Virus record (IMG/VR): IMGVR_UViG_3300025141_015636
Length of the DNA stretch: 64,000 nucleotides
Direction: 5' to 3' (one strand)
From: an uncultured virus (IMG/VR IMGVR_UViG_3300025141_015636)
Lineage: Duplodnaviria > Heunggongvirae > Uroviricota > Caudoviricetes
Part shown: one piece after another, positions 1-44,161 of the stretch
How positions within the stretch are numbered: position 1 is the first letter of the stretch
Layout of the letters: every line of letters begins with the position of its first letter
Program-made: the position numbers and the translations under genes
The notes under the pieces: generated by a model
Told to the model about the DNA's origin: nothing
The model's input: the letters and a program-made list of their open reading frames with translations, nothing else
The model's database searches: none

Positions 1-1452
1 GTTAATAACAGAGTGTTCCTATCAGGATCTGATATAGGTCTTAAGGGTGAAAGTACAGCAGCTAACGCTATCAGGCTCGAAGCTTCTGCCGGAGGTATTG
101 ATATTGACGCTATTGGTGCAATCAGCATTGATTCATCAGCTGGATCAATTGATATGAATGTTGTTGACGGACAAACTGTCGCAATTGGATTAAGCGGTGC
201 AGCAGAGCTTGTTCTCTCTCCGCATGGAACTCCTGCAAATGAGAAGATCGCACTTATCAACACAGCAGGTACTGCTGATGATGCTATTAAGCTTGATGCA
301 GTCGCTGGTGGTCTCCTTCTTGCTGCTGGTGATGATTCACTTCATCTCGATGCTGACGGTACTGATGCTGATGCATTGAATATCGATTCAGCTGGCGGTA
401 TGGACGTTGACGTTGTTGGCGTTCTTGACATGCTAGCCGGTGATGACTCTGTTATCGCTGTCGGTACAGCTGCCAAAGATCTTGCACTCACAGTTTCTGG
501 CGGAGGAGCCCAAGTTCTTCAGTTGAACTCAGCAGGTACAGGCACTGATGCTATTGACATTAATGCTACTGCTGGTGGTTTAGATGTTGATGCAGCTGGT
601 GCTATAGCAATAGATGGTACAGGTATCTCACTTGACTCTGATGCATCTTCAAACTTCAGCACATCAATTGGATCACTAACATTTGTTGGTGCGAATAGAA
701 CATTCGTAACAGGTTCAGACGTTGGAGTCAAGTCAACATCAACAGCTGTTAATTCAATTAATATAGAAGCTTCAGCTGGTGGAATGATCTTGTCAGTTCC
801 AGATCAAAAGGGCTTGTCTCTTGGTAAGGCTGGCGGTGCAGAGATTCTTATCTCACCTCATGATACACCTGCTCAGGAGAAGATATTAGTTGAGAATAGT
901 GCAGGTACTGCATTAGACTCTGTTCTTCTAAGATCACCAGGTGGTGTTATAGCTTCAGGATCACAGGTTCAGCTAACCGGATCAGATGGTGTATTCTTTG
1001 CTTCACATAAAGATATGACTGGCGATAGAATAAAACTAGCAAACACTGGAGATTGGACAAGCTTCGTTGGAAATGCACTCTTTGGTGCAAGCACAACAAT
1101 AATTGGAGCACTAAACGTTCTAGCTTCAGCTGCCGGTGGTGGCCAGATAGGCTATGCTGTTCTAACTGGATCAGTTTCTTCACCAGATCCTTTCTCGCTA
1201 AATGCAGCGTCAGGATTCGTAAATGGAAATGGATATACGCAGCACACTGCATTCATTCCAGGCGAAGTTAATCCAGCAAACACTCAGGTGTATGTAAATG
1301 GTCAACTACTTGCAAGTTCATCAAATGCTGCTGCACCAACAACTTCTGGTGACTATCAGATTGTTAGAGGTGTTACTGGTCAGATCAAGTTCAGTTTTGA
1401 TCTCGAGGAAGATGATGTTGTACTTATAAAAACCTCTGCACAACAAAGCTAA
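1..1452 (+). CDS. Tail fibre-like / virion structural protein with beta-repeats (5' end lies outside the window)
   Basis: Frame is open from base 1. Repeated units AIRLEASAGGIDID / AIKLDAVAGG / ALNIDSAGGMDVD / AIDINATAGGLDVD / SINIEASAGG, an internal duplication (SPHGTPANEKI vs SPHDTPAQEKI), and a C-terminal VYVNGQLL...GDY...IKFSFDL beta domain. Followed by a strong terminator. Confidence 0.65.
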   Translation, partial: VNNRVFLSGSDIGLKGESTAANAIRLEASAGGIDIDAIGAISIDSSAGSIDMNVVDGQTVAIGLSGAAELVLSPHGTPANEKIALINTAGTADDAIKLDAVAGGLLLAAGDDSLHLDADGTDADALNIDSAGGMDVDVVGVLDMLAGDDSVIAVGTAAKDLALTVSGGGAQVLQLNSAGTGTDAIDINATAGGLDVDAAGAIAIDGTGISLDSDASSNFSTSIGSLTFVGANRTFVTGSDVGVKSTSTAVNSINIEASAGGMILSVPDQKGLSLGKAGGAEILISPHDTPAQEKILVENSAGTALDSVLLRSPGGVIASGSQVQLTGSDGVFFASHKDMTGDRIKLANTGDWTSFVGNALFGASTTIIGALNVLASAAGGGQIGYAVLTGSVSSPDPFSLNAASGFVNGNGYTQHTAFIPGEVNPANTQVYVNGQLLASSSNAAAPTTSGDYQIVRGVTGQIKFSFDLEEDDVVLIKTSAQQS

Positions 1453-1481
1453 TCTTTAGATTATATTTGTAGAGTAATTTT

Positions 1482-1515
1482 TGAGGACCGTGTTTACGCA
1501 CGGTCCTCATTTTTT
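1482..1515 (+). terminator. Rho-independent terminator
   Basis: Perfect 11-bp stem TGAGGACCGTG (1482-1492) / CACGGTCCTCA (1499-1509), followed by T6. Confidence 0.9.
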
Positions 1516-1520
1516 ATAAT
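1493..1520 (+). promoter_or_regulatory. Putative sigma70-type promoter overlapping the terminator
   Basis: TTTACG (hairpin loop) - 16 nt - TATAAT (1515-1520), 26 nt before the 1547 start. Confidence 0.45.
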
Positions 1521-1546
1521 TTCTCTATGCATCAACAGGTGAAAAA

Positions 1547-1966
1547 TTGAAGTTTTTAGATGAATTAGACAATATGATAAAAGGCGCAGATAAAGAGATT
1601 TTAAAACTAGATACTGCAAGAATAAAAAAAGATTACCATGTTAATTTTGTGACAGATAGAATAAACAAAGGAATAGAAGCGCTGACAAAAGAAAACCCTG
1701 AGGATCCGGTAAAGGTTCTAGGGTCAGTTCTGTCAATGGTTCCAGATTTTATATCAGAGGGATTTGATCTAATAAATAGATCGCATAGAGACCTTTTAGT
1801 ATCAAAGCAAACAATGGTTAAAATAAGGGATGGTATACAGAAATCAGATGAGGAGGGTGAAGAAGAAGAAGAGCCTAGCGCATTGGTAGAAAACGGCCAG
1901 AGCAAAAAAAAATCATCTAGAAAAAAACCAAAGCAGAGAAAAACATCTGACAGACCTTCAAAATAA
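1547..1966 (+). CDS. Hypothetical protein, helical, with an acidic then Lys/Arg-rich C-terminus
   Basis: 139-aa ORF with a TTG start after AGGTG; no recognisable motif. Confidence 0.75.
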   Translation: MKFLDELDNMIKGADKEILKLDTARIKKDYHVNFVTDRINKGIEALTKENPEDPVKVLGSVLSMVPDFISEGFDLINRSHRDLLVSKQTMVKIRDGIQKSDEEGEEEEEPSALVENGQSKKKSSRKKPKQRKTSDRPSK

Positions 1967-2037
1967 AAGATAATAGTTTTAAAAACTAAATACTCGGAAA
2001 TATTTTCAAATACCTAGTAATATACTAGGAATTTATA

Positions 2038-2730
2038 TTGAAAAACTCAACACAGAGAAATGAGAGTAGAAAGCTTAGAAGGTTAAAGTCTAAGCTTTCA
2101 TATTATAGAGCTGCTCTTGATGATATAAAAGGTACACTCTTTGATTACGAAAAGGAGTGGCTTTCTGATATAACGAGAATAAAAAGCAAGGCTTGCAAAC
2201 AAAATGATAATAAAAAAGAAATAGACACAAAAACGTCTGTAGATATTAAAAATTTTGAAAACGCTAGCGAAGAAAAAGATCAAAATTGCAACAAAGAAGA
2301 CAATAGCATCTCAGATAAAAAACATCCTAGATGGGTAAAAAAACTATTTAAAAAAATAGCATATCTGACACATCCTGATAAGCTAATTGGCGAGTTAGAG
2401 AAAGAAAAATTCTCTGATTTATTTAATAAATCAAGGGAGGCTCTTGATAATACTGATTATGATAGACTCGTAGAAATAGGCGATAGCCTTAATGTTGAAA
2501 TAGATCTTAGTATAAATGAAATTATTTTAAAGCTTGAAAAAAGATTAGACTCTATAGTAAGTGAAATATCATTAATAGAAAAATCGTCTGCCTGGATGTG
2601 GGGAGAAAGTTTTGGAATTATAGATATCAGGCTCAAGATTGCAAAGTATGAGCTTGAATCATCAGGAGCTGGAAATATACATGATGGAGATATTATTGAT
2701 ATTATTTTAGATATAGAGTCTAAAATGTAA
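2038..2730 (+). CDS. J-domain (DnaJ-like) co-chaperone protein
   Basis: VKKLFKKIAYLTHPDKL...FSDLFNKSREAL matches helix II-HPD-helix III of a J-domain; N-terminal coiled coil. Confidence 0.75.
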   Translation: MKNSTQRNESRKLRRLKSKLSYYRAALDDIKGTLFDYEKEWLSDITRIKSKACKQNDNKKEIDTKTSVDIKNFENASEEKDQNCNKEDNSISDKKHPRWVKKLFKKIAYLTHPDKLIGELEKEKFSDLFNKSREALDNTDYDRLVEIGDSLNVEIDLSINEIILKLEKRLDSIVSEISLIEKSSAWMWGESFGIIDIRLKIAKYELESSGAGNIHDGDIIDIILDIESKM

Positions 2731-2754
2731 TTTTATATCAAACTTACTATCGGT

Positions 2755-2781: not shown

Positions 2782-4011
2782 ATGGCAGGAATACTTAATT
2801 CAAAAACAAGAGTGATAGACGCAGTCATCACAAGTGAAGGAAAAAGGCAAATAGCAGATGGAAACCTAATAGTTTCATATGCATCAGTATCTGATAAGCA
2901 CACATATTATGAGAAAGATATAGCAAGCGGATCATCAGATGCTACAAAGAGAATATACTTTGAATGCCCCATTAAATCATTTAATGATTCAATTACACTA
3001 GAGTCAGATGACTCTGGAAAGCTTTGGGGATATGAGACAACACCTGATATTTTGCTAAGGGGTGATGGTGTAGTAGAAAAACTAGTAACAGGATCAGATC
3101 AGTCAGAGCCTCAGTATACGCCAGCGGGTCAGTTTGAAGGATTTGCATCTGTAGCTGATAAAATACTTTCATCATCAATAGATAGCTTTAAAAATCTATA
3201 TACAATAGGAACTAGAGATGCAGGCGAGTCAATATCGCTTAGAACAAAGCTAAGTAAAAATTCATATAAATTTACTATTAGTAATACTTATCCATTTATA
3301 GAAGGTCCAGGAGATAGCACAATAAATGTAGATTTTGTAAATCCATTATTTTTTGATGAAAGGCTTCAGTATGCACCCCAGTTTAAATACTTACCTCCTA
3401 TTGTAATGGATCCGGAAGACTTTTTTGATCCTGATAACATACAAGAGACACAGGGTATTCCGCTATACTTTGGAGATTACGTGCAAATAGCAAGGGCGGA
3501 GCATTTGCAATTATCAGATCTCATGTACCATTTAAACAAGACTGATAGCTGGTTTACGCAAGAAATTCACCCAGATGATCCTGGAGAATTATTAACAAGA
3601 TCGGATATGGAGTCGTCAGTTATAAACTGGGATCCTGATGATGATGAGGATAATACATCTCTATCTCAGCAAGGCCCATGGGTTAAAAGCGAAGATTCAT
3701 CAAATTATGGATTAAATGAATCAGAAACAGATGGATCAAGAATAAACCTATCATCAGATGAGCTAGCAAGGGAAAGAGTTTCTGTATTTTTTGAAAGAAC
3801 ATCTTCAACTAATAATATTATGATGCAAATGTTTGAGATTGATTCTTCAAAATCAACAATGCTAAAGCTAGATATTATTGATTTTGGATATCATACAGAT
3901 TCTCACGATTCTGCAAGACCTATAAAACATGTATTTTTTGCAGGAAAAATATTTATAAATTCTTACGGGCTACCCGTTTTTATTAACCTTTTTGATATAA
4001 TTTTAGACTAA
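2782..4011 (+). CDS. Virion structural protein (baseplate/fibre-anchor-like N-terminus)
   Basis: N-terminal IDAVITSEGKRQIA...IVSYASVSD is paralogous to the 12926 protein and resembles the first half of the P2 gpH-type fibre-attachment domain. Confidence 0.55.
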   Translation: MAGILNSKTRVIDAVITSEGKRQIADGNLIVSYASVSDKHTYYEKDIASGSSDATKRIYFECPIKSFNDSITLESDDSGKLWGYETTPDILLRGDGVVEKLVTGSDQSEPQYTPAGQFEGFASVADKILSSSIDSFKNLYTIGTRDAGESISLRTKLSKNSYKFTISNTYPFIEGPGDSTINVDFVNPLFFDERLQYAPQFKYLPPIVMDPEDFFDPDNIQETQGIPLYFGDYVQIARAEHLQLSDLMYHLNKTDSWFTQEIHPDDPGELLTRSDMESSVINWDPDDDEDNTSLSQQGPWVKSEDSSNYGLNESETDGSRINLSSDELARERVSVFFERTSSTNNIMMQMFEIDSSKSTMLKLDIIDFGYHTDSHDSARPIKHVFFAGKIFINSYGLPVFINLFDIILD

Positions 4012-13660: not shown

Positions 13661-14911
13661 GTGAGTACATCAAAAACATTAGATCCGTCAACGGATATAA
13701 AAACATCTGATAGTCAGCTAAACCAGTTAGTAGACTTTATTCAGACAGACGTATCTTCGTCAAATTCTAGAAAGTCATATCAGGTATTTGTTACTGGTGG
13801 AATAGGTCCAGGGGTAACGTCATCTCTTTTTCAAACAGTATATGATCAGGATTTTTCACTACAGACATCAAATCCATGCTTTGATATAACGTGTATGATA
13901 TTTTCCGGAAGTGGTGTTGTTACAGGTTCAAAAACTGGAGAAGATTCAACAGGAAAGATGCTATTTCCATCAACATCAATAATGATGAGGGAGAAAATAG
14001 AGAATTATAATCAATATGCACAACTTCTTCTTGGAAATGCAGGTTCACCTTTTTACTCTCCATATGGAAGTTCAACACTTTCAGATAGAATAAATGTTGG
14101 AATTGCATTCAACATTAAGCGTCTTTTTCACAGGGATGCCATAAAGAGAGAATCTTTTGCAATGAGATTTTATAGAAGTGCAGCATATAGCAGTAATTCT
14201 CCAGTAAATCCAGTCATGAGACAGAATCTATGGGTAACTTCTGAATCAGGATCATGTGTCATAACAGATCTAGGATCATCCACAGCAATGGCATCTTCAG
14301 TTGGTGGAGCTGTGGGAAATCTTGTAAACTCAGCAAACACTAGTGAGAATCTTGGATTAATTTTTTACGATCAGGGGATAATTTTACTAGATGCAGAAAA
14401 GACAATGTCAGGATCTGAACATGCAACGGGATCAATTCAGGCAGTTTCTGCACAGACAGTTGACGGTGCAGCTGGTCGTACAGTTCTAGGAGAGATCTTA
14501 TCAACATCTGGTAAGAAAGGAAATAGGCAGGCAAAGTTCATACCCGACTTCTTCGTATCAGCTTCGATAGATCAAGTAGTAGATCACATAGCAGAGGCAA
14601 GAGTAAGTTCTGGATCACTAACATTTATGACTTTTCAAAATATAACACAGATCAAATCAACTCTAATATTCTGCAGGGCGACTGCTGATGAGTTCAACTA
14701 TTCATCTAATCCAACGTATGTCGATCCATCAAATAACAAGATAAGGGTTATTGAAACAGGACAGGAAGGCTCACAAAAGGCTTTCTCATATATTACTACA
14801 ATAGGACTTTATGATGCAAATGATAATTTATTAGCAGTTGCAAAGACATCAAGACCAATTGAAAAAAATGATGAAAAGGATTTGACAATACGGGTAAGGC
14901 TCGATTTCTAG
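13661..14911 (+). CDS. Virion structural protein (baseplate/fibre-anchor-like C-terminus)
   Basis: C-terminal FNYSSNPTY...YITTIGLYDANDNLLAVAKTSRPIEK...IRVRLDF; paralogous C-terminus to the 14921 protein. Confidence 0.6.
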   Translation: MSTSKTLDPSTDIKTSDSQLNQLVDFIQTDVSSSNSRKSYQVFVTGGIGPGVTSSLFQTVYDQDFSLQTSNPCFDITCMIFSGSGVVTGSKTGEDSTGKMLFPSTSIMMREKIENYNQYAQLLLGNAGSPFYSPYGSSTLSDRINVGIAFNIKRLFHRDAIKRESFAMRFYRSAAYSSNSPVNPVMRQNLWVTSESGSCVITDLGSSTAMASSVGGAVGNLVNSANTSENLGLIFYDQGIILLDAEKTMSGSEHATGSIQAVSAQTVDGAAGRTVLGEILSTSGKKGNRQAKFIPDFFVSASIDQVVDHIAEARVSSGSLTFMTFQNITQIKSTLIFCRATADEFNYSSNPTYVDPSNNKIRVIETGQEGSQKAFSYITTIGLYDANDNLLAVAKTSRPIEKNDEKDLTIRVRLDF

Positions 14912-14920: not shown

Positions 14921-17341
14921 ATGTCTATTGTCAAAGTCTTAAATGAGCGACAGGAGAACTTTTCACTAACTCTTCATCCTGAAACTAGATACCTTAGTTC
15001 ATCAAATGGAACATCTGGATCTGCTGCACTATCTCCAAGACCCAGTCCGGCATTAAAAGATTTGATAGCTCCCGGAGAAACAGGCGAGCTATCATTTGGA
15101 ACTGATGGATCGACAGATAGTTCATTTGACGAATCTGCATTTCTAGCAACAATAGCAAAAGATGCAGCATCTTTAATTGTAAATGGTGCAATGCTAGCTG
15201 GGACGTCTGTAGATGTTTCCGAGTATATGGAAACATATCTATCAGGGGTTAATACAGCAAATAGTCCAACTAGAAACTCTAAAAGATTGTATATAACAAG
15301 ATTTGATCCACCTTTCTCTCTTAACGATGTTGCAATTGAAAAGTTGATAATAAAAGATAATCTTTTACCATTCTATGCTGCAAGATATGACGTTAGTGAA
15401 TTTGCATATACAAACTATAGTACTTTAAATTTTTTAACTGCTTCTGGGCTTCCTGAAAATTCTGCTATAATATACCCAAACTTAAGTAGAACAGTAAATG
15501 AGCCGAGGCCGTACTCTCCCACCGGATCATTTTCAATAGACTTTTATATAAATCCAAGATATACTACAGAGAGGCTAGAGTCTTATAAAGCTGGGACAAT
15601 TTTTCATCTATCATCATCATTTGCTGTATCTTTAGTTTCTGGAAGTAGTCGTGACCAAGATCAGAAGGTCGATGGATTTAGAATAGCATTACAGCTAAGT
15701 CACAGTGCAGATGTACCTCCAAGTACTATAAATTTCAATGCCACATCACATACACATCCTAAAGATCTTGTATTTGTTACACCTGACAACTCTTTAAAAA
15801 GAAATAATTGGCATCATGTTACAATAAGGTGGGGCGGAAAAGATTTTAATATGGGTACAGGCAGTATCTTAATTGATAGTATGTCTACACAATTTGTATT
15901 TACAGGGTCAGATATACTTCCCCCACCTCATATTGGATGCTCTGCACTTATTGTAGGAAATTATTATGAGGGGTATGATAATGAGGCAAAATTCTTTAAT
16001 GAAAATGTTTCAAATGAAGGTGTATATCCTACGCTAGAAGGTCTCACTGAAGATCCAGTTAACTTCTTCTTCAGGCACAAGCTGAATGCAGAAGTTCATG
16101 AGCTAAAAATATTCAACAGGTATATTGCAAATAAAGAAATTGAAAAATATAGCAAGTCTTCACCGCAAAATTTTAAAGATTTAATGTTCTACGTTCCGCC
16201 AATGTTTATAAGGGAATCAAGGGAAAGAGACGTTCTCTTGACTCCATTTCAGACAACAAGTAAAAAAACTGATGATCCATTTAATGTAGATTTCTCATTT
16301 GGTGTCGGAGGGTTTGTTATGAATCTTGAAAACCACACCAGGGAGTTTATTAAAAGATTCTCTCCGCGTTTATATAATCTTACTGCTTCAACATTAAATA
16401 CAACTGTTGAAAATATAACTGCAACACAATTTGTCTACGCATCTGCATCAATAAGGGCAAGAAATTTAACTATACTTCCAAATGACAATGGAAGATTTAT
16501 GCCAGATTATACTATTTTATCTACCGGTAGCAGTGATAGTTCAAAGTTTAAATCTATATACGGCGGTCAAAATTTAAGTCTGGTATCTATAGATTCAATG
16601 ATATCCACAGGAACAATATTTCCTGGATTGCCAACAACAGCAGTTTCAGATGTAATTGCAGCAATAGATGATGATGCAACAACACTTCCTGATGCAACAG
16701 GTCCCGATACAATAACAGCACTAATAGCAGGCGTTACACCTGAAAGCATGGGTGGAATATCAGGTCCAATACTCACAATTGCACAAAGAACGCGAGATTT
16801 ATCTTCTAATGAGATATGCTTTTTCGACATATCAAATCTTTTCTATGGAGATCAAATAAAAGAGGAGTCTTTGACAATTGTAGATAACTCACTAACTGGA
16901 TCAGGTGGAAAGATAAAGATATCGCTAAGGGATAACGGAAAGGGAGGTGTATATAGGTGTGATGCACAAGGTCCAAATCCCAAATGGTCAAATATAGGGA
17001 ACTGTATATATGATGAGGGAATTGTTCTTGTTAAACACCCAGCGCTAACATTTTTTGGAAAAGATCAGTTTGAAATAACATTTAAGGGTCACCAAAATAT
17101 TCATATAAAAATGTATAATATTGAACTAGGCAGCGGATTATTTAATTCATCTAGCAACCCTCAATATAAAGTCTTGTCAGCTTCTGGAAGTCCATCAGAT
17201 ATTGGAAAGAAGTTTGTATATATAGACAGCCTTAATCTTCATGATGAAAATTTAAATATAATTATGAGGGCAAATTTCGCACAACCGATTAAAAAGAGAG
17301 TGAATGATTCTATGGTAATAAGATTTAAGATGGATTTTTAA
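14921..17341 (+). CDS. Virion protein with a ConA/laminin-G-like domain and fibre-anchor-like C-terminus
   Basis: SFSIDFYINP...NNWHHVTIRW...LIVGN...VHELKIFNRYI fits a LamG-3 pattern. Ends FNSSSNPQY...YIDSLNLHDENLNIIMRANFAQPIKK...RFKMDF. Confidence 0.65.
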   Translation: MSIVKVLNERQENFSLTLHPETRYLSSSNGTSGSAALSPRPSPALKDLIAPGETGELSFGTDGSTDSSFDESAFLATIAKDAASLIVNGAMLAGTSVDVSEYMETYLSGVNTANSPTRNSKRLYITRFDPPFSLNDVAIEKLIIKDNLLPFYAARYDVSEFAYTNYSTLNFLTASGLPENSAIIYPNLSRTVNEPRPYSPTGSFSIDFYINPRYTTERLESYKAGTIFHLSSSFAVSLVSGSSRDQDQKVDGFRIALQLSHSADVPPSTINFNATSHTHPKDLVFVTPDNSLKRNNWHHVTIRWGGKDFNMGTGSILIDSMSTQFVFTGSDILPPPHIGCSALIVGNYYEGYDNEAKFFNENVSNEGVYPTLEGLTEDPVNFFFRHKLNAEVHELKIFNRYIANKEIEKYSKSSPQNFKDLMFYVPPMFIRESRERDVLLTPFQTTSKKTDDPFNVDFSFGVGGFVMNLENHTREFIKRFSPRLYNLTASTLNTTVENITATQFVYASASIRARNLTILPNDNGRFMPDYTILSTGSSDSSKFKSIYGGQNLSLVSIDSMISTGTIFPGLPTTAVSDVIAAIDDDATTLPDATGPDTITALIAGVTPESMGGISGPILTIAQRTRDLSSNEICFFDISNLFYGDQIKEESLTIVDNSLTGSGGKIKISLRDNGKGGVYRCDAQGPNPKWSNIGNCIYDEGIVLVKHPALTFFGKDQFEITFKGHQNIHIKMYNIELGSGLFNSSSNPQYKVLSASGSPSDIGKKFVYIDSLNLHDENLNIIMRANFAQPIKKRVNDSMVIRFKMDF

Positions 17342-31972: not shown

Positions 31973-33925
31973 ATGGCCAAATCATTTACATTAAACCAAC
32001 TAACTGAAGGTATTCGTGACAGAGACATGAGTGCTGAAGGTCAGAAGGTAACAAACAAGTGGGCGCGTACAGGTCTTCTAAGGGGTCTAGGTGAGCAGGG
32101 TCGAGAGACAATGTCACGACTTCTTGAGAACCAGGCAGCTCAGGTACTTAGAGAGGTTAACTCTCTCGGTGGCGGTGCAGGTAGTGCATCATCATCTGGC
32201 GATATTAGAGGTTTTACAAATATCGCATTCCCAATCGTTCGTAGAGTTTTCGGAGGCTTAGTTGCCAATGATCTCGTTTCAATCCAGCCAATGAGTCTTC
32301 CCTCGGGACTTCTCTTCTATCTGGACTACACATATGGCACAGCTGTAGGTGGTGATTCAAATAGACAAACAGGCGCTGCTGGTGCAACAAACACACAAGC
32401 ATATTCAAAAGGTCAATCAATCTACAACCTTCCGACAGGTAAGGGTGTAAGATCTGGATCTGATGCAGTCGGTGGACCCTATGATCTTGCTGGAACAGCT
32501 TATACAAGAGTTCATACTTCTCTTAGCAATACATCAGGTGATAGACTTACACTTCTAGCTTCTGGTGCATATGGTAATAGTACATCCCTAAGTGGAAATA
32601 CAAAATGCCAAGCTACAGGATCAGATGGAAAAGCTCTTCAGTTTGACCCACAGGTAACACAGCTCATTGAAGAAAATGCAAGCTCAGGTGGAAAGCTACA
32701 GGGTGTCGGACAGTTTCAGCTTATGATATGGGATGTAACTCAGTTTCCTGCAAAGGCTGATCTTACAGCTGTTAAGCAGTTTACGCTTGGTGCGCAGGGT
32801 GCTTCAGACGGCGTCACAATCGTTAGTTCGACAGGTCTTAAGTACATTACATCCGGTGATGAGATTCAGGGCGGACGAACCCTTAACGTTAGAAGGCTTA
32901 ACCAGCTAGGAACTTACTCAGGTGGTGTCTTTACACCTAATCCTCTAGTTACAAGATCTACATCAAATGCAGCTCTTTTAACTGTTGTATCTGGTACATA
33001 TCTTCCTAAATTCTCAGCACAGGGTCACGGATGTACAGGTTCATACGTTCAGTCACCAACACTCAATGTTGGATCAGACGGCGATGCACTCACTATCCCA
33101 ACTTTCGAGTCAGACTTTGAGTCATCACCTCAGGTTGTTATACCAGAGATTGATATCAAGATCGAATCAATTGCTGTAACAGCAGAGACTCGTAAGCTTC
33201 GTGCTCGTTGGTCACCAGAACTCGCACAGGACTTGAATGCCTACCACAGCCTTGACGCTGAGGTTGAGCTTACTCAGATCCTATCAGAGCAGATTGCTCT
33301 TGAGCTTGACAGAGAGATCCTAAACGATCTGCTTACTGAAGCGCAGGGTGCAAACTTCTACTGGTCAAGAATGCCTGGTAAGTTCGTTAACAAGAGAAGC
33401 GGAGCAGAGGTAGAGCTAGCTAGCTCACTATCAGCTGGTCCTGCATTCACTGGAACTGTTAGAGAGTGGTATGAGACTCTTACTGAGACAATCATTGATG
33501 TCGCAAATGAGATTCATAGAAAGACCCTTCGCGGATCTGCTAACTTTATCGTGGTTTCACCTGAAGTTGCTACAATCTTCGAGGCTTCTGTTCTCTATAA
33601 GCCAAGCCTAAGTCTTGATGGACAAGGTCAGGTTGGATCTCCATTCCAGCTTGGTGCTGCACCGATTGGTAGCCTTAGCAACCGTTTCACGGTTTACAAG
33701 GATCCATATTTCCCGCGCAACAAGGTTCTTGTTGGATATAAGGGAGGTAGCTACCTTGAAACCGGATACGTATACGCACCTTACGTTCCATTGATTGTTA
33801 CACCTACAATCTTCGCGCCAGAGGATTTCACACCCCGCAAGGGAGTGATGACTCGCTACGGCAAGAAGATGGTTCGTGCTGACTTCTACGGAACAGTTAC
33901 AGTTCTTGATATGAATGTAATATAA
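31973..33925 (+). CDS. Major capsid protein (T4 gp23-like) with a large insertion
   Basis: LLENQ, PIVRRVF...VSIQPMSLPSGLLFYL, TRKLRARWSPELAQDLNAYHSLDAEVEL and YAPYVPL...FTPRKGVMTRYG; SD AAGGAG. Confidence 0.97.
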   Translation: MAKSFTLNQLTEGIRDRDMSAEGQKVTNKWARTGLLRGLGEQGRETMSRLLENQAAQVLREVNSLGGGAGSASSSGDIRGFTNIAFPIVRRVFGGLVANDLVSIQPMSLPSGLLFYLDYTYGTAVGGDSNRQTGAAGATNTQAYSKGQSIYNLPTGKGVRSGSDAVGGPYDLAGTAYTRVHTSLSNTSGDRLTLLASGAYGNSTSLSGNTKCQATGSDGKALQFDPQVTQLIEENASSGGKLQGVGQFQLMIWDVTQFPAKADLTAVKQFTLGAQGASDGVTIVSSTGLKYITSGDEIQGGRTLNVRRLNQLGTYSGGVFTPNPLVTRSTSNAALLTVVSGTYLPKFSAQGHGCTGSYVQSPTLNVGSDGDALTIPTFESDFESSPQVVIPEIDIKIESIAVTAETRKLRARWSPELAQDLNAYHSLDAEVELTQILSEQIALELDREILNDLLTEAQGANFYWSRMPGKFVNKRSGAEVELASSLSAGPAFTGTVREWYETLTETIIDVANEIHRKTLRGSANFIVVSPEVATIFEASVLYKPSLSLDGQGQVGSPFQLGAAPIGSLSNRFTVYKDPYFPRNKVLVGYKGGSYLETGYVYAPYVPLIVTPTIFAPEDFTPRKGVMTRYGKKMVRADFYGTVTVLDMNVI

Positions 33926-34719: not shown

Positions 34720-35907
34720 GTGGCGACATTTACAAATACAACTAGTCCAACTCCTTTTGGATTTTTTGACGAAGAATCAGCTTTTAAAACAGAGGCTGAT
34801 AATATGATAACGTTTGTAAAGAGAAAGCTTGGAGACGATATTCTGAGTGTAGAGCTTACAAAAAAACAAATATGGGCAACACTTGAAGAAGCAACACTAG
34901 AGTTTAGTGCAATATTAAATACATACCAGGCGAAGTCACAAATAGTTAATTTTTTAGGAGGCCCGATAACAGGATCAACGGGTGAGATGTCTGGCTCGGA
35001 GGGAAAATATCCTAGAGAAAATTTAGACTACTTGACAAGATTTGCAGAGCCATACGCACAAGAGGCAGGCACGGGTGGATCTTATAACATGATGTCAGGA
35101 TCGATATCACTTAAAGATGGTCAGCAAGATTATGACATGTATACACAGCTTAAAGATTCAGATGGAAATTTAATATTTTCATCTAGCTTAAATAGCAAAA
35201 AAAGTAAAATGCAAGTAAGTGAAGTATTCCATTTTAGTCCGCAAGCAGCATATAGATTCTTTGATACAACTTCTGCAATTAACTATCTTAACAATGAGTT
35301 CTCATTTGAGTCATTTACCCCAGAAACAATATTCTATGTATTACCAGTATTTGAAGATATACTAAGGGCTGGTCAGCTAGATTTATCAAATAGAGTTAGA
35401 AGATCAAATTATTCCTATAAGATAATTGGTACAAAAATAAGAATATACCCAATGCCAACTTCAAACTCAGAGTCTCCTCTTAAGCTATGGCTAAGGGTAA
35501 AGTTTTATTCAGATCCTCTTAATGCTAGCTATGGAGATGATACCATAGAGGGAGTTTCAAATCTATCAGACCTTCCATTTGGAAATTTACAATATACAAA
35601 TATTAATAGCATAGGCAGGCAGTGGATCAGGCAATATTCTTTATCACTCTCTAAGGAACTATTGGGTCATGTAAGATCAAAGTTCTCTAATATTCCGATA
35701 CCTGGAGCAGATCTAACACTAGATGGAAAAGAGCTTATAACACAAGGAAGAGAGGATCAGACAGCACTAAAAACATCGCTCAAGGAAATGCTTGACACGA
35801 TGACATATGATAAGCTTATGGAGCTTGCAGCAACAAGAGCAGAGTTTATTAATAAGCAATTAAAATTCATTCCCATGCCAAATGGGCTAGCAATACTAAT
35901 GGGATAA
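34720..35907 (+). CDS. Neck protein (T4 gp13-like)
   Basis: KRKLGDDILSVELT..QI and WIRQYSLSLSKELLG.VRSKF..IPIPG..LTLDG motifs; positioned after the capsid gene. Confidence 0.8.
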   Translation: MATFTNTTSPTPFGFFDEESAFKTEADNMITFVKRKLGDDILSVELTKKQIWATLEEATLEFSAILNTYQAKSQIVNFLGGPITGSTGEMSGSEGKYPRENLDYLTRFAEPYAQEAGTGGSYNMMSGSISLKDGQQDYDMYTQLKDSDGNLIFSSSLNSKKSKMQVSEVFHFSPQAAYRFFDTTSAINYLNNEFSFESFTPETIFYVLPVFEDILRAGQLDLSNRVRRSNYSYKIIGTKIRIYPMPTSNSESPLKLWLRVKFYSDPLNASYGDDTIEGVSNLSDLPFGNLQYTNINSIGRQWIRQYSLSLSKELLGHVRSKFSNIPIPGADLTLDGKELITQGREDQTALKTSLKEMLDTMTYDKLMELAATRAEFINKQLKFIPMPNGLAILMG

Positions 35908-37840: not shown

Positions 37841-40800
37841 ATGGCTGAACAGACATTCAAATCGCCAGGTTTTTTTGAGAGAGAAATAGACCTATCGCAA
37901 AGAGATAAGACGATATCAGGTATTCCAGCAGGAATTGCCGGAACTTCACATATGGGTCCAGCTTTTGTACCCGTTACAGTTGGATCGTTTTCTGACTTTG
38001 AAAATAGGTTTGGTGGACTAGATCCTGATAAGTTTGGTCCATATGCAGTAAAGGAATTTTTAAAGCACAGAACAGCAGTGACATACGTTAGAGTGCTTGG
38101 TGCTGGTGCAAATGATTCCACCACAGATTTCGACAATACTCTTACAGCTGGTATAACAAAGGGTGCTGGGTTTAAGATAAAGGGTGAGATGGCCGCTGAA
38201 GGATCTGTAAGTGCACATGGAAGAGGTGCAGGATGTGTCCAGTTCATAGTTGGACGCCATTACGTTTCAGCATCAAATGAAGCAGTAGGCTATCCAATGC
38301 TATCAGATAATGATTCATTTTTTAGAACAGGCGGTTCATTTGCATACATGGTAAGAGGAATGCTTATGTGTGCATCTGGAACTAGATTCGAAATAATGAA
38401 TATAAATTCTGGATCTTATTCAACTGGCATCGGAGCAAATAATGATACGGCTGGTGTCGGATATACAGCCGACGACGGCGGACTGTTTAAACTTATAATT
38501 TCATCATCAGCAGGATCCACATTCTCATCTGATGAAGGAAATTCAGGAATTAGAATATATACAGCATCTTTAGATCCGACTGATGATGCATACATTGCAA
38601 ATATTCTAAATACAGATCCAAAATTCTTTCAGAAAGAGCAGCATTTACTTTATGCTCACTTTCCTGTTGAGTCAGAGGTTGCAACTCTTGATTGGTCAAA
38701 GACAAAAGCCTCTGTTGCACTTACTTCTGGCTCTGCTTTAACATCCGCAGCATCAGGAATTTCAACAGAAACTTTTGCAAATGCATATGGAAGATTTGAT
38801 TCAAGATTTACAACGCCTGCAACAACATGGTTTATCTCACAGCCATACGGTACAAATGCATACGATCTCTTCAAGGTAGAGACAATTTCAGATGGTGCAT
38901 ATGCAAATTCGAAATTCAAGATTTCAATTAGAGATATAAGAAAATCAGTTGATCCATCATCGCCTTTCGCAACATTTACTCTTGAAGTTAGAGACTTCGA
39001 TGATGTTGATACAAATGCAAAGGTTCTTGAGAGATATCCCGGTTGCACTCTTGATAAGAATTCATCCGACTACATTGCTAGAAAGATAGGTGATTTTAAA
39101 GCATACTATAACTTTGATGCAGAACAAGATTCAGAAAAGATGGTGCTTGTCAAGGGTCAATATCCAAATGTATCTTCTAGAGTACGTGTTGTAATGGCTG
39201 GTGGTCTTGTTGCAGGCGATGTTCCTGATGATGCAATGCCATTCGGATTCAGAGGACTACCGGTAGTAAAGACATCAGATACTCTTAGTGATACGCGCCT
39301 TCCAGTTCCTGGAATAGGATCACCAAAACAGCCTAGAAGACTTAGTATGGATCTTGGTGATATGAATATTTATACTCCAAGTGCTGCTTCAACAACTTAC
39401 TGGGCAGAAATTCTTGCTATGACAGGATCAATCTTGCCGCCAATTCCAATGAGATTCAAAGTAACTCGAGGAACTATTGATAAAACTCCAACATTCACAG
39501 GTCAAGCTGGCGGTGATGAAAGAGTTGACGGAAGATTTTACTGGGGAATTAAATCAACAAGACTTCCAAGAACAGGTTCAAAAGCTGATGCAATATTTAA
39601 TAGTAATGCATCTAGTGAACTAAATCCAATAGTTAGAGAATATACGAAATTCTTGGGTATACAAAAGCTAGATGTTCTAGTCACAGGATCTGGTGCAGAC
39701 AAGTTCAATAATAATATGTTTACTCTTGCAAGGGTTGCACTTTATAACAGCACGGGATCAACATCAGGAAATCTAGATAAATCTATTCCTGCAGTTATAA
39801 CTGGATCTGCAAAAGAGCACATGTTAAATACTGCATACATTAGAAATGGAGACCCGGATCCAAAAGAATACTTGATCGACGATGATGATATGAAGAGGCT
39901 GACATTTGCCTCCCTTGCGTCTATAACATCATCAGTTTACTTTAATAAGTTTACAGATTACGCAAAATTCACAAATATCATGCATGGCGGATTTGATGGT
40001 CTTAATATTCTTGATAAGCACATGGCTAACATGGATGATCAATCCTGTTCGTCTGACACCGGTGGATATGCTTCTGGAGCAACACTTGATATTGGCCTAA
40101 GGGATCTAATCGTAGGATCAGGAAAGTACAATGCGAACGTTTCTTCATACAGAGCGGCTGCCAGAATATTGACTGATGAAGTTTCTTCAAGGGTTAATAT
40201 TATTGTAATTCCTGGAATTAGAGATTCTTCTCTTACCGACTACGTAATGGAAAGACTTGAAGATTATGGAAAAGCATTTTATATCATAGATGTTCCATCA
40301 TATGATGCAGATCAAGTCAGACTTTTTGACGGAAGTTCAAAAGCACCGAACGTAGGCATGACAGCACAAAACTTTGCTGCAAGGTCTATTAACAATAATT
40401 TCTCCGCAGCTTACTTTCCAGATGTAACAATAGGAGACCCAATTAATAACAGGCCTGTACAGGTGCCTGCAACAGTTGCAGCTCTAGGGGCACTTGCATA
40501 TAGTGATTCAGTATCATATCCGTGGTTTGCTCCTGCTGGATTTAACAGGGCATCACTTGGATTTGTTAGCAATACAAAGGTAAGGTTAAATCAGGGCGAT
40601 AGGGACGAACTATACGAATCAAGAGTTAATCCAATAGCATCCTTCCCTAGGGCTGGTTACGTAATATTTGGTCAAAAAACATTGCAACTTGGAAGAAGTG
40701 CCCTTGACAGAGTAAATGTAAGAAGAATGCTTCTTGAAGTTAGAAGAGTTGTAAGTGAAGTTGCAAACTTAATAGTTTTCGAACAAAATACACCGGAAAC

Positions 40801-41020
40801 AAGAGCAAGATTTGTTGCAGATGTTACACCCTTGCTGTCAAACGTTCAATCACAGCAAGGTATAGACCAGTTTAAAGTTATTATGGATACAAGTAACAAT
40901 ACATCTGAGGATATAGAGAGCAATGTTCTTAATGGAAGAATTGTTGTTGTTCCAACAAGAGCAATAGAGTTTATAGCAATAGACTTTATTATAACACATT
41001 CAGGTGTAAGTTTCGAATGA
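37841..41020 (+). CDS. Tail sheath protein 1 (gp18-like)
   Basis: SPGFFEREIDLS, GPAFVP, PWFAPAGFNR, LYESRVNPI, FGQKTL...ALDRVNVRR, EFIAIDF. Confidence 0.95.
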   Translation: MAEQTFKSPGFFEREIDLSQRDKTISGIPAGIAGTSHMGPAFVPVTVGSFSDFENRFGGLDPDKFGPYAVKEFLKHRTAVTYVRVLGAGANDSTTDFDNTLTAGITKGAGFKIKGEMAAEGSVSAHGRGAGCVQFIVGRHYVSASNEAVGYPMLSDNDSFFRTGGSFAYMVRGMLMCASGTRFEIMNINSGSYSTGIGANNDTAGVGYTADDGGLFKLIISSSAGSTFSSDEGNSGIRIYTASLDPTDDAYIANILNTDPKFFQKEQHLLYAHFPVESEVATLDWSKTKASVALTSGSALTSAASGISTETFANAYGRFDSRFTTPATTWFISQPYGTNAYDLFKVETISDGAYANSKFKISIRDIRKSVDPSSPFATFTLEVRDFDDVDTNAKVLERYPGCTLDKNSSDYIARKIGDFKAYYNFDAEQDSEKMVLVKGQYPNVSSRVRVVMAGGLVAGDVPDDAMPFGFRGLPVVKTSDTLSDTRLPVPGIGSPKQPRRLSMDLGDMNIYTPSAASTTYWAEILAMTGSILPPIPMRFKVTRGTIDKTPTFTGQAGGDERVDGRFYWGIKSTRLPRTGSKADAIFNSNASSELNPIVREYTKFLGIQKLDVLVTGSGADKFNNNMFTLARVALYNSTGSTSGNLDKSIPAVITGSAKEHMLNTAYIRNGDPDPKEYLIDDDDMKRLTFASLASITSSVYFNKFTDYAKFTNIMHGGFDGLNILDKHMANMDDQSCSSDTGGYASGATLDIGLRDLIVGSGKYNANVSSYRAAARILTDEVSSRVNIIVIPGIRDSSLTDYVMERLEDYGKAFYIIDVPSYDADQVRLFDGSSKAPNVGMTAQNFAARSINNNFSAAYFPDVTIGDPINNRPVQVPATVAALGALAYSDSVSYPWFAPAGFNRASLGFVSNTKVRLNQGDRDELYESRVNPIASFPRAGYVIFGQKTLQLGRSALDRVNVRRMLLEVRRVVSEVANLIVFEQNTPETRARFVADVTPLLSNVQSQQGIDQFKVIMDTSNNTSEDIESNVLNGRIVVVPTRAIEFIAIDFIITHSGVSFE

Positions 41021-41053: not shown

Positions 41054-44000
41054 ATGGCTGAAGTAGTTTACAAAAGTGCGGGAATATACGCAACAGAAAT
41101 AGATTTGTCCCAGCCCACGGCGAGAAAGCCATCTGGAACACCAGCAGGCGTTATTGGAACTTCAAACCAAGGGCCTGCATTTATTCCTGTAACAATTGGA
41201 TCTTATGAAGACTTTGCAAGAGTATTTGGTGCAACAGACGGTGAAAAATTTGGACCGTTAGCTGTCTATGAATTTCTTAAAAATGCGCAGGCTTTAACAT
41301 ACCTTAGAGTTTTAGGGGCTGGTGATGGTAATAAAAGAAGCGGAGATACAGGAAAAGTCACAAATGCTGGCTTTACTGTGGGTCAGTCACTACCACTAGG
41401 TACAGGAATATACGGAGATAATCCATATGCAGTTGCAGATGGTGATACAGGAAGAACATACTTTCTTGGATGCTTTATGTCAGAGTCTGCTGGAAGTAGA
41501 ATTTTCACATCAGCGGGAATTTCTAGACTTCACAGTGCTAGTTCAATAGTCAGAGGAGTTCTTTTAGCAGCATCAGGGGTTATACTAACACTATCTGGAA
41601 ATAACAGTCCGGCTGGAGCAGCTGGGCAGCCTTCAAATACTGTTGCAGCAACAGCAGGAGCAACAACACTAAAAGGTGGAATGACTGGTTCTGTAAGAAT
41701 ATCTGACGGTCAGTTTACATTGCTTCTAAATGGTCATGTAAATACAGATCTTTATCCGAACACATTAACAGCTTCGTTTGTTACAACGGAAAATTCATAT
41801 TTTGGAAAAGTCTTTAATACAGACCCGCTTAAGCTTCAAAAGGCTGGACATATTCTATATGCTCAATATGATATAAACTCTGCATATGCACATATAACAG
41901 GATCTGGTATACTTTCTGGAAGTCGACATGCGACTGGGCAACATCTTCTTGGAACATCAGAAGAATTACAGGATATTGGATTCTTGCTTACAGGATCAAA
42001 TGCTAGAGATACAGCAACAGGTATTGCACCTAATTATGAGTCATTTAATGATAGATTTACGCATGCAAAAACTCCATTCTTTATATCTCAAGATTTCGGA
42101 GGAACAAAATATGATCTATTTAGAGTTCACTCGCTAGATGATGGTTCATATGCAAATGACCTTATAAAGATATCTATACAATCAATTAAACCTTCAACAT
42201 CTGATACAGATAAGTTTGGAAGATTTGACTTATTAGTTAGAAGATTCGATGATCAAGATCACAAAGTAATTGCACTAGAGAAGCATCTTGGCTTAACTTT
42301 AGATCCTAGCAGTGATAAGTACGTCGCAAGAGTTATTGGTGATCAAAACATATATTTTGACTTCGATCAGGCAGCTGGTAGCCAAAAGATCGTTGTAAGT
42401 GGAGATCATCCTGGATCTTCAACACTTATAAGAGTTGAAATGTCAACTACACTTAAAAACGGACAAGTGCCAGATGCAGCACTACCATTAGGGCACAGGG
42501 GACCAGATCATCTTGTAACATCCGGAAGTGGACCTTTAGCTTGCTTCCCACAAGTTCGAACAGCAAAAGTTGGAATTCACAGATCAACAGGATTTATTAC
42601 AACACCTAGTGCACCCAAGCTTCTAAAAGAAGCTGTTACAACACCAGTTGACTATAGGGAAGATATAATGATGGGAATATCTCCAGATATCAAGCCGGGA
42701 TCCTGGCTATACTGGGGGACAAGATTTGATGAAAGAATACCAGATGTTTTAGTTGATAGAACTGGTGAAGAATCAAAAGTTCTAAGAACACTAAATAGTC
42801 CTACAATTTCAGATAAGACAATTGCAAAGGCAAGGGTTAAATATTTTCCATCATTCAATCCTGGAACATTTAACTTTGCTGTAGGAAACAATCCAGGAAA
42901 AGCAGACTCTGGGGGCACAGTACTTGATTGTGACAAGTTTAATAAGAATATCTTTACTCTTGAAAGAATAAGAGTTAGAACAGGATCTGACGGAATTGCT
43001 GATACATCTGAATGGGCAAGCTCTTCATATGTAAGAGGCGGTGCAATATCAACGGATCATTCTACAAAGACAAGAGCTCTAAAAGTATCAGACTTAAAGA
43101 CACAAGGAAATAGAAAATACGCAAAGTTTACTGTATTCCTTCAGGGTGGATTTAATGGTACGAATATATTTGATAAGAATAAGAGCGAATTATTGAATAC
43201 AGCATGCAAGTGGGAAATGGATGATTCGACAAATCAGGGCGGTGTACAAGGTCCTACAGTTTCAACATATAGAAAAGCAATCGATATCATGGGAACAAAG
43301 GCTGATGCAGATATAAATCTTCTTGCAATACCGGGGCTTAGACATACAAGTGTAACAGACTATGCAATAGATGCAATTGAAAGTAGATTTGATTCAATGT
43401 ATATTATGGATATTGAAAGTAGAGATACATCAAACACAGTAATAACAGCATCAGTTGATTCAGATGGTGAACCTATTACACCAAACGTTAAGAATACAGT
43501 TGCAGGATTTCTTGCACGGTCTGTTAATACATCTTTTGCTGCAGCATACTTTCCAGATATAGTTATAACAGATCCGACTACAAAGACAAATGTAACAGTT
43601 CCGCCTTCTGTATCGGTTCTTGGTGCAATGTCTTTAAATGATGCAGTATCTCATCCGTGGTTTGCTCCAGCTGGATTTACAAGAGGCGCGCTCGGATCAG
43701 CACTATATGCTGCAAGACCTTTGAATAAGACAAATCTAGATGATCTTTATGAAGCAAAAATCAATCCAATTGTATCATTTACAAATGGAAAAGGTCTAGT
43801 TGTATGGGGACAAAAGACACTATTCCAAAATGCATCTGCGCTTGACAGGGTTAATGTTAGAAGGCTTCTTATAAATATTAGAAGGCAAGTTAAGAATATC
43901 GCAAACTCAATGCTATTTGAACCCAATAGGCAAGAAACACTTGATAGATTCAACTCTCTAGTTAAGCCAGTAATGCAAAGAGTTCAAGAGCAACAGGGTG

Positions 44001-44161
44001 TAGATAAGTACAAAGTAATTATCGATACAACTACAACAACACAGCTAGATATAGAGAATAATACACTTAGAGGGAAAATATTCCTTCAACCAACAAGAAC
44101 AGCAGAATTCATAGCACTTGATTTTGTTGTTGCAAATTCAGATAATTTTGATGATGCGTAA
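41054..44161 (+). CDS. Tail sheath protein 2 (gp18-like paralogue)
   Basis: SAGIYATEIDLS, GPAFIP, PWFAPAGFTRG, WGQKTL...ALDRVNVRRLL, PTRTAEFIALDF. Confidence 0.95.
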   Translation: MAEVVYKSAGIYATEIDLSQPTARKPSGTPAGVIGTSNQGPAFIPVTIGSYEDFARVFGATDGEKFGPLAVYEFLKNAQALTYLRVLGAGDGNKRSGDTGKVTNAGFTVGQSLPLGTGIYGDNPYAVADGDTGRTYFLGCFMSESAGSRIFTSAGISRLHSASSIVRGVLLAASGVILTLSGNNSPAGAAGQPSNTVAATAGATTLKGGMTGSVRISDGQFTLLLNGHVNTDLYPNTLTASFVTTENSYFGKVFNTDPLKLQKAGHILYAQYDINSAYAHITGSGILSGSRHATGQHLLGTSEELQDIGFLLTGSNARDTATGIAPNYESFNDRFTHAKTPFFISQDFGGTKYDLFRVHSLDDGSYANDLIKISIQSIKPSTSDTDKFGRFDLLVRRFDDQDHKVIALEKHLGLTLDPSSDKYVARVIGDQNIYFDFDQAAGSQKIVVSGDHPGSSTLIRVEMSTTLKNGQVPDAALPLGHRGPDHLVTSGSGPLACFPQVRTAKVGIHRSTGFITTPSAPKLLKEAVTTPVDYREDIMMGISPDIKPGSWLYWGTRFDERIPDVLVDRTGEESKVLRTLNSPTISDKTIAKARVKYFPSFNPGTFNFAVGNNPGKADSGGTVLDCDKFNKNIFTLERIRVRTGSDGIADTSEWASSSYVRGGAISTDHSTKTRALKVSDLKTQGNRKYAKFTVFLQGGFNGTNIFDKNKSELLNTACKWEMDDSTNQGGVQGPTVSTYRKAIDIMGTKADADINLLAIPGLRHTSVTDYAIDAIESRFDSMYIMDIESRDTSNTVITASVDSDGEPITPNVKNTVAGFLARSVNTSFAAAYFPDIVITDPTTKTNVTVPPSVSVLGAMSLNDAVSHPWFAPAGFTRGALGSALYAARPLNKTNLDDLYEAKINPIVSFTNGKGLVVWGQKTLFQNASALDRVNVRRLLINIRRQVKNIANSMLFEPNRQETLDRFNSLVKPVMQRVQEQQGVDKYKVIIDTTTTTQLDIENNTLRGKIFLQPTRTAEFIALDFVVANSDNFDDA

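Follow-up and report, generated by a model that had tools for sequence, protein, structure and literature searches.

An uncultured tailed-phage record, IMGVR_UViG_3300025141_015636, raises the question of why one short tripeptide, [S/T]-G-S ([ST]GS), recurs in several unrelated proteins predicted to lie on the exterior of its virion. The stretch of DNA analysed here, called the window, is 64,000 nucleotides long. A first-pass annotation had counted the motif in seven of its proteins and proposed a recognition site for a modifying enzyme. All seven counts were reproduced exactly, and the approximate total of 38 in about 4,800 aa was recounted as 38 in 4,844 aa, where composition predicts 7.7 for these post hoc selected proteins.

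Motif distribution in the window

The features used in the analysis are as follows.

1..1452, + strand: putative fibre-like ORF, open at its 5' end, with no Pfam or PHROG match; 5 motifs, at nt 22, 709, 955, 976 and 1165
2782..4011, + strand: conserved ORF, synteny anchor; 2 motifs against 0.5 expected
13661..14911, + strand: clade-specific protein, probably baseplate, with homologs in immuto, Mel-JY01, RM378 and LR756508; 6 motifs, at nt 13904, 13922, 14246, 14408, 14426 and 14609
14921..17341, + strand: LamG-like protein, probably baseplate (label from ESM Atlas look-alikes only, 12-29% of nearest-cluster members; no Pfam match); 8 motifs, at nt 15014, 15521, 15638, 15857, 15902, 16523, 16895 and 17183
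31973..33925, + strand: T4 gp23-like major capsid protein; 3 motifs, at nt 32453, 32615 and 33035, in the variable insertion
34720..35907, + strand: neck / head-tail adaptor Ad2; 3 motifs, at nt 34969, 34990 and 35095
37841..41020, + strand: tail sheath 1; 7 motifs, at nt 38408, 38726, 39422, 39572, 39683, 39752 and 39800
41054..44161, + strand: tail sheath 2; 6 motifs, at nt 41684, 41897, 41915, 41990, 42521 and 42980
44224..55868, + strand: tube, gp26-like, TMP, tube initiator, small wedge and hub genes; internal contrast, motif-free despite many GS dipeptides

The window counts exceed chance. Shuffling gave p values of 0.0005-0.0085 in six of the seven motif-bearing proteins; the capsid by itself showed no significant excess (p=0.09), and its three motifs all fall within the variable insertion, as had been described. 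Among all 8,000 tripeptides in the window's 47 proteins, scored without preselection, TGS ranks first (29 against 10.1 expected, Bonferroni 0.007), while SGS taken singly ranks 108. The first-pass annotation argued that Gly/Ser composition is an insufficient explanation; the excess survives shuffling and recurs in held-out relatives. Also confirmed were the motif-free tube, TMP and portal, and the complete lack of S/T before GS in the tube initiator (0/12) and hub (0/11).

Other parts of that description needed narrowing. The term virion-wide was too strong, given that the five ORFs at 2782-13636 together carry 4 motifs against 4.8 expected. The count of nine in the 11 window enzymes was right, but these are not a clean background (3.3 expected, p=0.007), though their orthologs are near chance. 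The sheath core does lack exact [ST]GS in the window genome, and the sheath-2 motifs lie outside the C-terminal core; across the family, however, there is a site near residue 800, in a subtilisin-like domain, in 27 of 99 sequences, and another occurs at residue ~62 in distant lineages.

Motif enrichment in related phages

By its neck, baseplate protein, gp23-like capsid, sheath and gene order, the window belongs to a myovirus of the RM378/immuto/Mel-JY01 group. Its closest cultured relatives in sheath, capsid and neck are Flavobacterium phage immuto_2-6A, Microcystis phage Mel-JY01 and Rhodothermus phage RM378. These share the motif excess and carry a GT4 glycosyltransferase (GT) pair, but have one sheath and genomes of 130-190 kb, while the window represents an uncultured two-sheath branch whose nearest near-complete relative is G016 (340 kb). 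A further record, G001, is 100% identical to window positions 397-39246 and lies wholly inside it. A literature search, with most subscription papers and supplements outside its reach, found no account of the motif or of virion glycans in these phages.

In 87 held-out orthologs of the seven proteins from 16 genomes, 293 motifs were found against 71.5 expected (4.1x), compared with 32 against 47.5 in internal virion proteins (0.67x), 35 against 28.6 in enzymes (1.2x) and 4 against 4.1 in control orthologs. Thus [ST]GS is about fourfold over-represented in the predicted outward-facing virion proteins of the window phage and its relatives; it is under selection at the protein level and restricted to these exterior-type proteins. 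The excess is visible genome-wide in immuto_2-6A (2.5x), Mel-JY01 (2.4x) and RM378 (2.7x), and in G/S/T-rich proteins of pair-bearing genomes it is limited to the ordered motif, [^ST]GS being at 0.7-1.1x. Two GT-negative controls, HTVC008M (2.1x) and RHph_Y65 (2.2x), score within the range of the pair-bearing genomes, whose low values are 1.6x (G003) and 1.8x (G049 fragment). The 141 kb of LR756511 examined held no G/S/T-rich protein to score.

A tandem GT4 pair in the clade

The first-pass annotation saw no modifying enzyme in the window, and neither the GT4 pair nor any other glycosyltransferase was found there. Its relatives encode a phage-specific tandem pair, A then B (gp181 and gp180 in immuto). 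A profile search recovered both in 9 of 9 near-complete motif-positive genomes, including immuto, Mel-JY01, RM378 (whose B is divergent) and the 99%-complete two-sheath G016, while seven shorter fragments lack the pair. The two genes are neighbours in 79 of 80 loci; of 68 further loci with room for B, 67 have it next to A. In three relatives the pair lies 16.5-37 kb upstream of the 2782..4011 ortholog, so by synteny the window phage would be expected to carry it at least 14 kb upstream of the window, within a predicted 14-35 kb interval where a late sigma factor and baseplate genes would come after it; exact-match scans found no contig extending the window in that direction.

The pair matches PF00534, and the consensuses of both A and B contain E-G-F-G-x-x-x-x-E, in keeping with the E-x7-E motif of retaining GT4 enzymes; the GT-B fold was obtained from a model of A only. 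The fold of this model resembles that of generic small-molecule GT4s, namely MshA (Z 36.5, rmsd 2.8, 357 aligned) and chlorovirus B736L (3oy2; Z 35.5, rmsd 3.2, 366 aligned, 17% identity).

The first-pass annotation suggested looking for co-occurrence of the motif with glycosyltransferases. The pair is conserved in the relatives, but motif and enzymes are common to one clade, so their co-occurrence is largely a single evolutionary event. GT4-A is found in at least 7,847 metagenome sequence clusters and has 9 matches among 50,697 phage records; clade markers and GT4-A fall in the same 7 of these records. Phylogeny therefore confounds the link between motif and enzyme, for which LR756508 supplies the single contrast. 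This 484-kb metagenomic record, possibly incomplete, retains A, lacks B in six frames and has all but lost the motif: its two sheaths, neck and wedge, all homologous, contain none. B is the sole true absence among 28 core groups in LR756508, and its joint absence with the motif is the one contrast in favour of motif loss with enzyme loss. No relatives of LR756508 were found, nor a usable second GT4-B-negative or motif-poor lineage with genomic context. Two GTDB loci carry A without B, without structural-gene context. In a FastTree tree the motif-poor sheaths fall into two or more small subclades, and in 17 such sheaths N-x-S/T or D-S/T-x was not consistently present as a replacement.

A proposed virion glycosylation system

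On balance, we consider it more probable than not that [ST]GS serves as a sequon for O-glycosylation of outward-facing virion proteins and is read by the phage GT4 pair. The targets would be the sheath, neck, baseplate, fibres and capsid insertion of RM378/immuto/Mel-JY01-like myoviruses, where the motif residues are predicted to be surface-exposed. The reader would be the cytoplasmic tandem pair of retaining enzymes, with B the better candidate for the sequon-linked step. One hydroxyl residue of the motif would receive the sugar and the other would aid recognition; variable neighbouring GT2 and nucleotide-sugar genes may then extend the glycan. Such a coat might shield or stabilise the particle, or alter adsorption. 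A broader version is held more tentatively, as a serious possibility: a very large group of aquatic T4-like phages, most of them uncultured, may have its own sequon-directed O-glycosylation, in which a core GT4 pair acts on [S/T]-G-S in unrelated folded virion proteins and gives the outer tail, neck and baseplate a glycan coat at tens of sites per protein set.

Virion glycosylation of tailed phages is documented mainly in mycobacteriophages, where tandem phage GT genes have been proposed to modify structural proteins (Freeman et al., 2023, as cited in PMC12619734 and PMC11600133). Tandem phage-encoded GTs are common to both systems. In those siphoviruses, glycans reportedly sit at the C-termini of capsid and tail tube, and cluster O has three tandem GTs. 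Here, by contrast, an ordered motif is spread across many unrelated exterior proteins of a T4-like myovirus with a motif-free tube, and the modification is a predicted one. No defined sequon for tailed-phage virion glycosylation was found in the literature searched.

Chloroviruses (PBCV-1 Vp54; NY-2A B736L) likewise encode their own GTs, and B736L ranks in the top three of GT4-A's structural matches. They differ in being eukaryotic viruses with mainly N-linked glycans on one capsid protein, and the acceptor of B736L is itself putative (PMC4691112). The third comparison is GtfA/GtfB, which O-GlcNAcylates serine-rich repeat adhesins of the accessory Sec system and is reported to be likewise a two-gene GT-B system for cytoplasmic Ser/Thr glycosylation. 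GtfA/GtfB works by a pair mechanism, with S-x-S-like repeats as substrate. Its targets are long Ser repeats, unlike the dispersed sites in folded phage proteins. Sequence similarity is marginal (GT4-B against Gtf1, E=0.27), and neither GtfA/Gtf1 nor SdgB is among the 50 fold matches listed for GT4-A, although they may yet be related. As both phage GT4s keep E-G-F-G-x-x-x-x-E, B looks unlike an inactive, GtfB-type partner.

If this reading is true, an abundant group of aquatic phages would have sugar-coated particles as a core trait, and the genes now labelled cell-wall glycosyltransferases would serve another role. A viral O-glycosylation code based on a sequon would be readable from genomes, and a compact cytoplasmic enzyme pair with a portable three-residue glyco-tag could become a glyco-engineering tool. 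The three cultured members make the question open to direct glycoproteomics.

Alternative explanations

The proposal that the motif is a recognition site for a modifier is partly supported, by shuffling, the held-out relatives, the GT pair and the LR756508 contrast; the strand-to-loop placement of the motif and its confinement to one clade weigh on the other side. The selection evidence leaves the reader unnamed. The motif may be a genuine tag with another reader (a kinase, an acyl- or methyltransferase, or host O-glycosylation) or a docking site for a decoration protein, with the GT4 pair acting on host surface polymers or DNA; this is unlikely, but not strikingly so. The fold of GT4-A is generic, and a DNA alpha-GT is found among its viral look-alikes; GT clusters of jumbo phages have been interpreted as surface-polysaccharide genes (PMC7824862), and host enzymes are reported to modify phage tail proteins (PMC13445384). 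No other family among the 28 core groups, however, tracks the motif, and the hosts as deposited are as different as Flavobacterium, Rhodothermus and Microcystis, which argues against one host enzyme. The Bacteroidetes O-glycosylation sequon is D-S/T-(A/I/L/V/M/T), which [ST]GS does not fit. LC-MS of immuto DNA found dA, dC, dT and, in place of dG, fdPreQ1; no glycosylated base appears in the passages of that report covered here (10.1101/2023.04.13.536721).

It is also unlikely, and a shade more doubtful, that turn preference and shared ancestry account for the pattern, with [ST]-G-S capping strand-to-loop transitions in beta-rich domains, inherited or copied within one clade, and the GT4 pair a core gene with another job. 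Five of the six sheath-2 motifs are at strand ends or loops and one is inside a strand. Because the motifs mostly sit where a beta-strand passes into a loop, an outcome that the first-pass annotation had named as counting against its proposal, burial or ordinary beta-turns, is partly seen. Their flanks are hydrophobic (I/V/F/L at -1, L/F/I downstream) and Pro is rare afterwards (0.12x), as expected of a strand context. The hypervariable sheath insertions show no TGS excess (7 against 7.4), and TGS occupies an unexceptional number of distinct sheath sites (47 against 35.6+-8.9; 23 of 194 similar tripeptides equally high). The roughly twofold excess in the two GT-negative controls and the single clade point the same way. 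Against this, [ST]G[ND], [ST]G[GA] and [^ST]GS are mostly near 1x in the same proteins, cyanophage fibre and baseplate proteins reach only 1.2-1.3x, the Gly/Ser-rich hub and tube initiator have no motif, and the homologous LR756508 proteins are motif-free. One consensus, moreover, appears across unrelated folds and at eight sites of a single protein: [ST]GS, with 8 semi-conserved sites, leads the 76,000 two-choice patterns scored over 99 sheath sequences. At these eight sites, position 1 is T138/S75, position 2 G213/S52/A16 and position 3 S213/T38; a test that ignores relatedness shows coupling between positions 1 and 3 at seven of them. The sites vary between sub-lineages, and the window's two sheath paralogs have one column in common.

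It is very improbable that the pattern is due to chance, to post-hoc choice of the proteins or to a motif at the DNA level (for example GATC within GGA-TCN): although the seven proteins were chosen once counts were known and 23 of the 38 motifs read GGATC, the top rank came without preselection, the excess was replicated in held-out genomes, the DNA pattern is in frame (38 occurrences against 2, 5, 4, 8 and 0 in the other frames), and GGA-TC is used in 33 of 54 motifs against 64 of 124 other GS dipeptides (p=0.26). For the final Ser of the motif both codon families are used, with AGY in 7 of 38.

Motif variants

Under the proposal, [S/T]-G-S would be the main form of the sequon and [S/T]-[S/A]-S a weaker one. 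As far as the window is concerned, a wider [ST]-x-S sequon was discarded: [ST][AS]S occurs only 22 times there, against 15.7 expected. The [ST][AS]S variants are more visible in the relatives than in the window, and RM378 additionally has [ST][FLY]S, which may reflect strand alternation. In sheath 2, a T-A-S variant at nt 43445 (residue 798) lies on the family-conserved site.

Motif excess in the window

The window comes from a T4-like myovirus that has two sheath genes, and it covers the phage's virion and replication module. The first-pass annotation read [ST]GS (Ser/Thr-Gly-Ser) as a candidate sequon for virion modification, with 5, 6, 8, 3, 3, 7 and 6 copies in seven proteins (ORF 1-1452, ORF 13661-14911, a LamG-like protein, capsid, neck, sheath-1 and sheath-2). 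These counts were exact on recount, a total of 38 motifs over 4,844 aa where the proteins' individual compositions predict 7.7. Because the set was picked after counting, a preselection-free test was added over all 47 window proteins; TGS ranked first of 8,000 tripeptides (29 vs 10.1 expected; Bonferroni 0.007) and SGS 108th, confirming an excess over composition. The claimed contrast with other proteins stood for eight internal virion proteins (0 motifs vs 6.0 expected) but not for 11 enzymes, which were raised too (9 vs 3.3, p=0.007), and the claimed spread over exterior ORFs did not extend to five ORFs at 2782-13636, which were at expectation (4 vs 4.8).

At 59519-63880, SSB, RecA-like, exonuclease and helicase genes hold 6 motifs vs ~1.1 expected, unlike most orthologs in relatives. 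As in the phages immuto_2-6A (Flavobacterium) and Mel-JY01 (Microcystis), there is a short PolA-like ORF of 411 aa that matches DNA_pol_A weakly (55869-57104), besides a separately encoded 5'-3' exonuclease (61532-62488). Two further ORFs have basic tails:

1547-1966, + strand: ORF with Lys/Arg/Ser/Thr-rich basic tail
34000-34617, + strand: ORF with Lys/Arg/Ser/Thr-rich basic tail, right after the capsid gene, without Pfam or PHROG match; we take it to be histone-H1-like in appearance

Held-out relatives

Protein classes were defined from the window alone, and orthologs were scored in 16 related genomes/contigs, including LR756508, a 484-kb metagenomic relative. The excess was reproduced in orthologs of the seven proteins (293 motifs vs 71.5 expected; 87 proteins, 16 genomes/contigs). 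Internal virion proteins had 32 vs 47.5 (96 proteins), enzymes 35 vs 28.6 (133 proteins) and the 2782-13636 class 27 vs 18.0 (35 proteins); four outgroup phages with few orthologs had 4 vs 4.1 (8 proteins). SGS or TGS was among the genome-wide top six tripeptides in immuto_2-6A, Mel-JY01 and RM378 (Rhodothermus), and likewise in the relatives G016, G017, G020, G035 and G038, with up to 23 copies in single probable fibre proteins of G035.

Selection on the motif and its sheath sites

The motif is under protein-level selection, clade-wide in RM378/immuto/Mel-JY01-like phages. Read in frame, its DNA pattern is found 38 times, against counts of 2, 5, 4, 8 and 0 for the remaining five frames, and GGA-TC usage is the same as in other GS dipeptides (p=0.26). 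The last Ser uses an AGY codon in 7/38 motifs, while first-position Ser uses TCN in 16/16, one base away from Thr.

An alignment of the window's own sheath with 98 of 150 representative sheaths, selected by a length of 900-1,300 aa, gave eight sites at which [ST]GS is kept by at least 13 sequences each, the maximum among 76,000 two-choice patterns. At these sites T or S occupies position 1 in 213/251 cases, position 2 is ordered G>S>A and position 3 S>T, and seven of the eight show coupling between positions 1 and 3 (relatedness ignored). Sites vary among sheath sub-lineages, and the two sheaths of the window also differ in theirs. Distinct TGS sites are not unusually numerous (23/194 similar tripeptides are equally high), and hypervariable sheath insertions have no TGS excess (7 vs 7.4 expected); the signal thus lies in a restricted set of sites that are kept, not in free recurrent gain. 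The window has two long tandem sheath paralogs (37841-44161) and the relative G006 three (8168-17623); lineages with short sheaths (570-590 aa) have 4-9 motifs, located at other positions.

The predicted sheath-2 model (mean pLDDT 87) matches T4-type sheaths. All six motifs lie N-terminal to the Pfam core (738-1026), as had been claimed: T282, T313 and T643 sit where strands end, T211 where one starts, and S288 and S490 in loops (secondary structure judged by eye). Inserted domains of the T4 sheath protein gp18 point outward.

A tandem GT4 pair in relatives

Candidate enzymes are encoded in relatives. Immuto and Mel-JY01 each have glycosyltransferase clusters, sharing GT2 genes and two tandem GT4 genes, GT4-A and GT4-B (immuto gp181 and gp180). 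B directly follows A in 79/80 loci; in a second viral set it adjoins A in 67/68 loci with room (the sole exception is an overlapping ORF call; 12 further loci lack room). A late sigma factor-like gene lies two genes past the pair in 78/80 loci (L242-L321; in G016, L354:15632-16435), and a PD-(D/E)XK-type exonuclease gene lies ahead in 73/80. In GTDB, B adjoins A in 20/23 loci (5 more without room). All 28 GTDB matches to A are on MAG contigs, assigned to unrelated phyla, archaea included (L471-L498); these are probably mis-binned phage contigs, and the A family could be a marker for contamination of this kind.

Matches in 50,697 phage records number 9 for A and 5 for B. Profile search found both in immuto, Mel-JY01 and RM378 (B divergent, E 4e-13), and also in G003, G007, G016, G017, G020, G034, G035, G038 and one G049 contig. 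Core GTs are also known from 'moraphages', a group that may overlap with this clade. Structurally, A is predicted to be a generic GT4, a fold that does not indicate the acceptor. In Mel-JY01 (PP395634.1 83441-84932; L026:34441-35932) A is in two adjacent ORFs (190 + 302 aa), by natural split or sequence error, in a genome where the motif remains strong.

In G016 the late sigma factor gene and baseplate module come after the pair. The pair lies upstream of the ORF-2782 ortholog by 37 kb (G003), 16.5 kb (G017) and 21.5 kb (G020). G002, G004, G006 and G010 lack it because these contigs stop 7-16 kb upstream of that ortholog, short of the pair's position; pair-less G005, G008 and G011 are fragments as well. 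From this synteny, the pair of the window's own phage is predicted just upstream of the window and outside it.

The LR756508 contrast

LR756508 keeps A, and B was found neither by six-frame profile search nor by genome search. Both sheaths, neck and wedge have 0 motifs, the capsid 1 and one baseplate protein 3. Among 28 core ortholog groups, defined by presence in seven or more of nine motif-positive genomes, three initially had no LR756508 member; portal and protease were then located in pieces, leaving B the only group truly missing. The portal matches are in three pieces and the prohead protease in two (LR756508.1 145787-149524, 156489-158099), with inserts between that may be introns, inteins or homing endonucleases.

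A B-less, nearly motif-free genome fits the expected co-occurrence of motif and enzyme, though as a single event in a metagenomic record of unverified completeness. Otherwise it concerns one clade: clade markers and A fall in the same seven phage records, so co-occurrence is confounded by descent.

Proposed modification and alternatives

Glycosylation is a plausible mechanism, still a proposal. We somewhat favor a reading in which the A+B pair would act in the cytoplasm and O-glycosylate exterior virion proteins on the [ST]-G-S motifs of their strand-end loops, and variable GT2 and sugar genes would extend the glycan. That the pair mainly serves DNA glycosylation is made less likely by immuto DNA, for which LC-MS gave canonical dA, dC and dT with fdPreQ1 in place of dG (available portion of 10.1101/2023.04.13.536721).

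That a modifier other than the GT4 pair reads the same tag is unlikely, if worth keeping in view; host-surface modification may be a job of the GTs (PMC7824862). Slightly less probable still is turn preference combined with shared ancestry. Among G/S/T-rich proteins 300 aa or longer, the motif was at 1.6-4.4x expected in twelve pair-bearing genomes (10/12 at ≥2.3x), 2.4x in the window and 1.2x in LR756508, and six GT-negative phages gave 0.6, 0.6, 1.2, 1.3, 2.1 and 2.2x (two covered in part), [ST]GT being raised as well in the two highest. Background from turn preference reaches up to 2x, and the ranges overlap. The 851 motifs compared, from motif-rich proteins of ten genomes, have hydrophobic flanks, and Pro directly after the motif is rare (0.12x), a pattern that fits turn and sequon alike. 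Chance is a very improbable source of the excess.

The motif is undescribed within the literature searched; new here are the held-out ortholog test, the sheath-site analysis, the synteny prediction of the pair and the LR756508 contrast. Some relatives are dominated by different hydroxyl-rich repeats, which may be further glycosylation targets: in G034 (L553-L566) these are TPT/VTP/PTN (TPT 224 vs 37), in Mel-JY01 (1-4591) collagen-like G-T-S/G-S-S. Motif-rich proteins of RM378 (NC_004735.1 17847-20267, 64825-75968) also favour [ST]-[F/L/Y]-S, through either a less strict motif or plain strand alternation.
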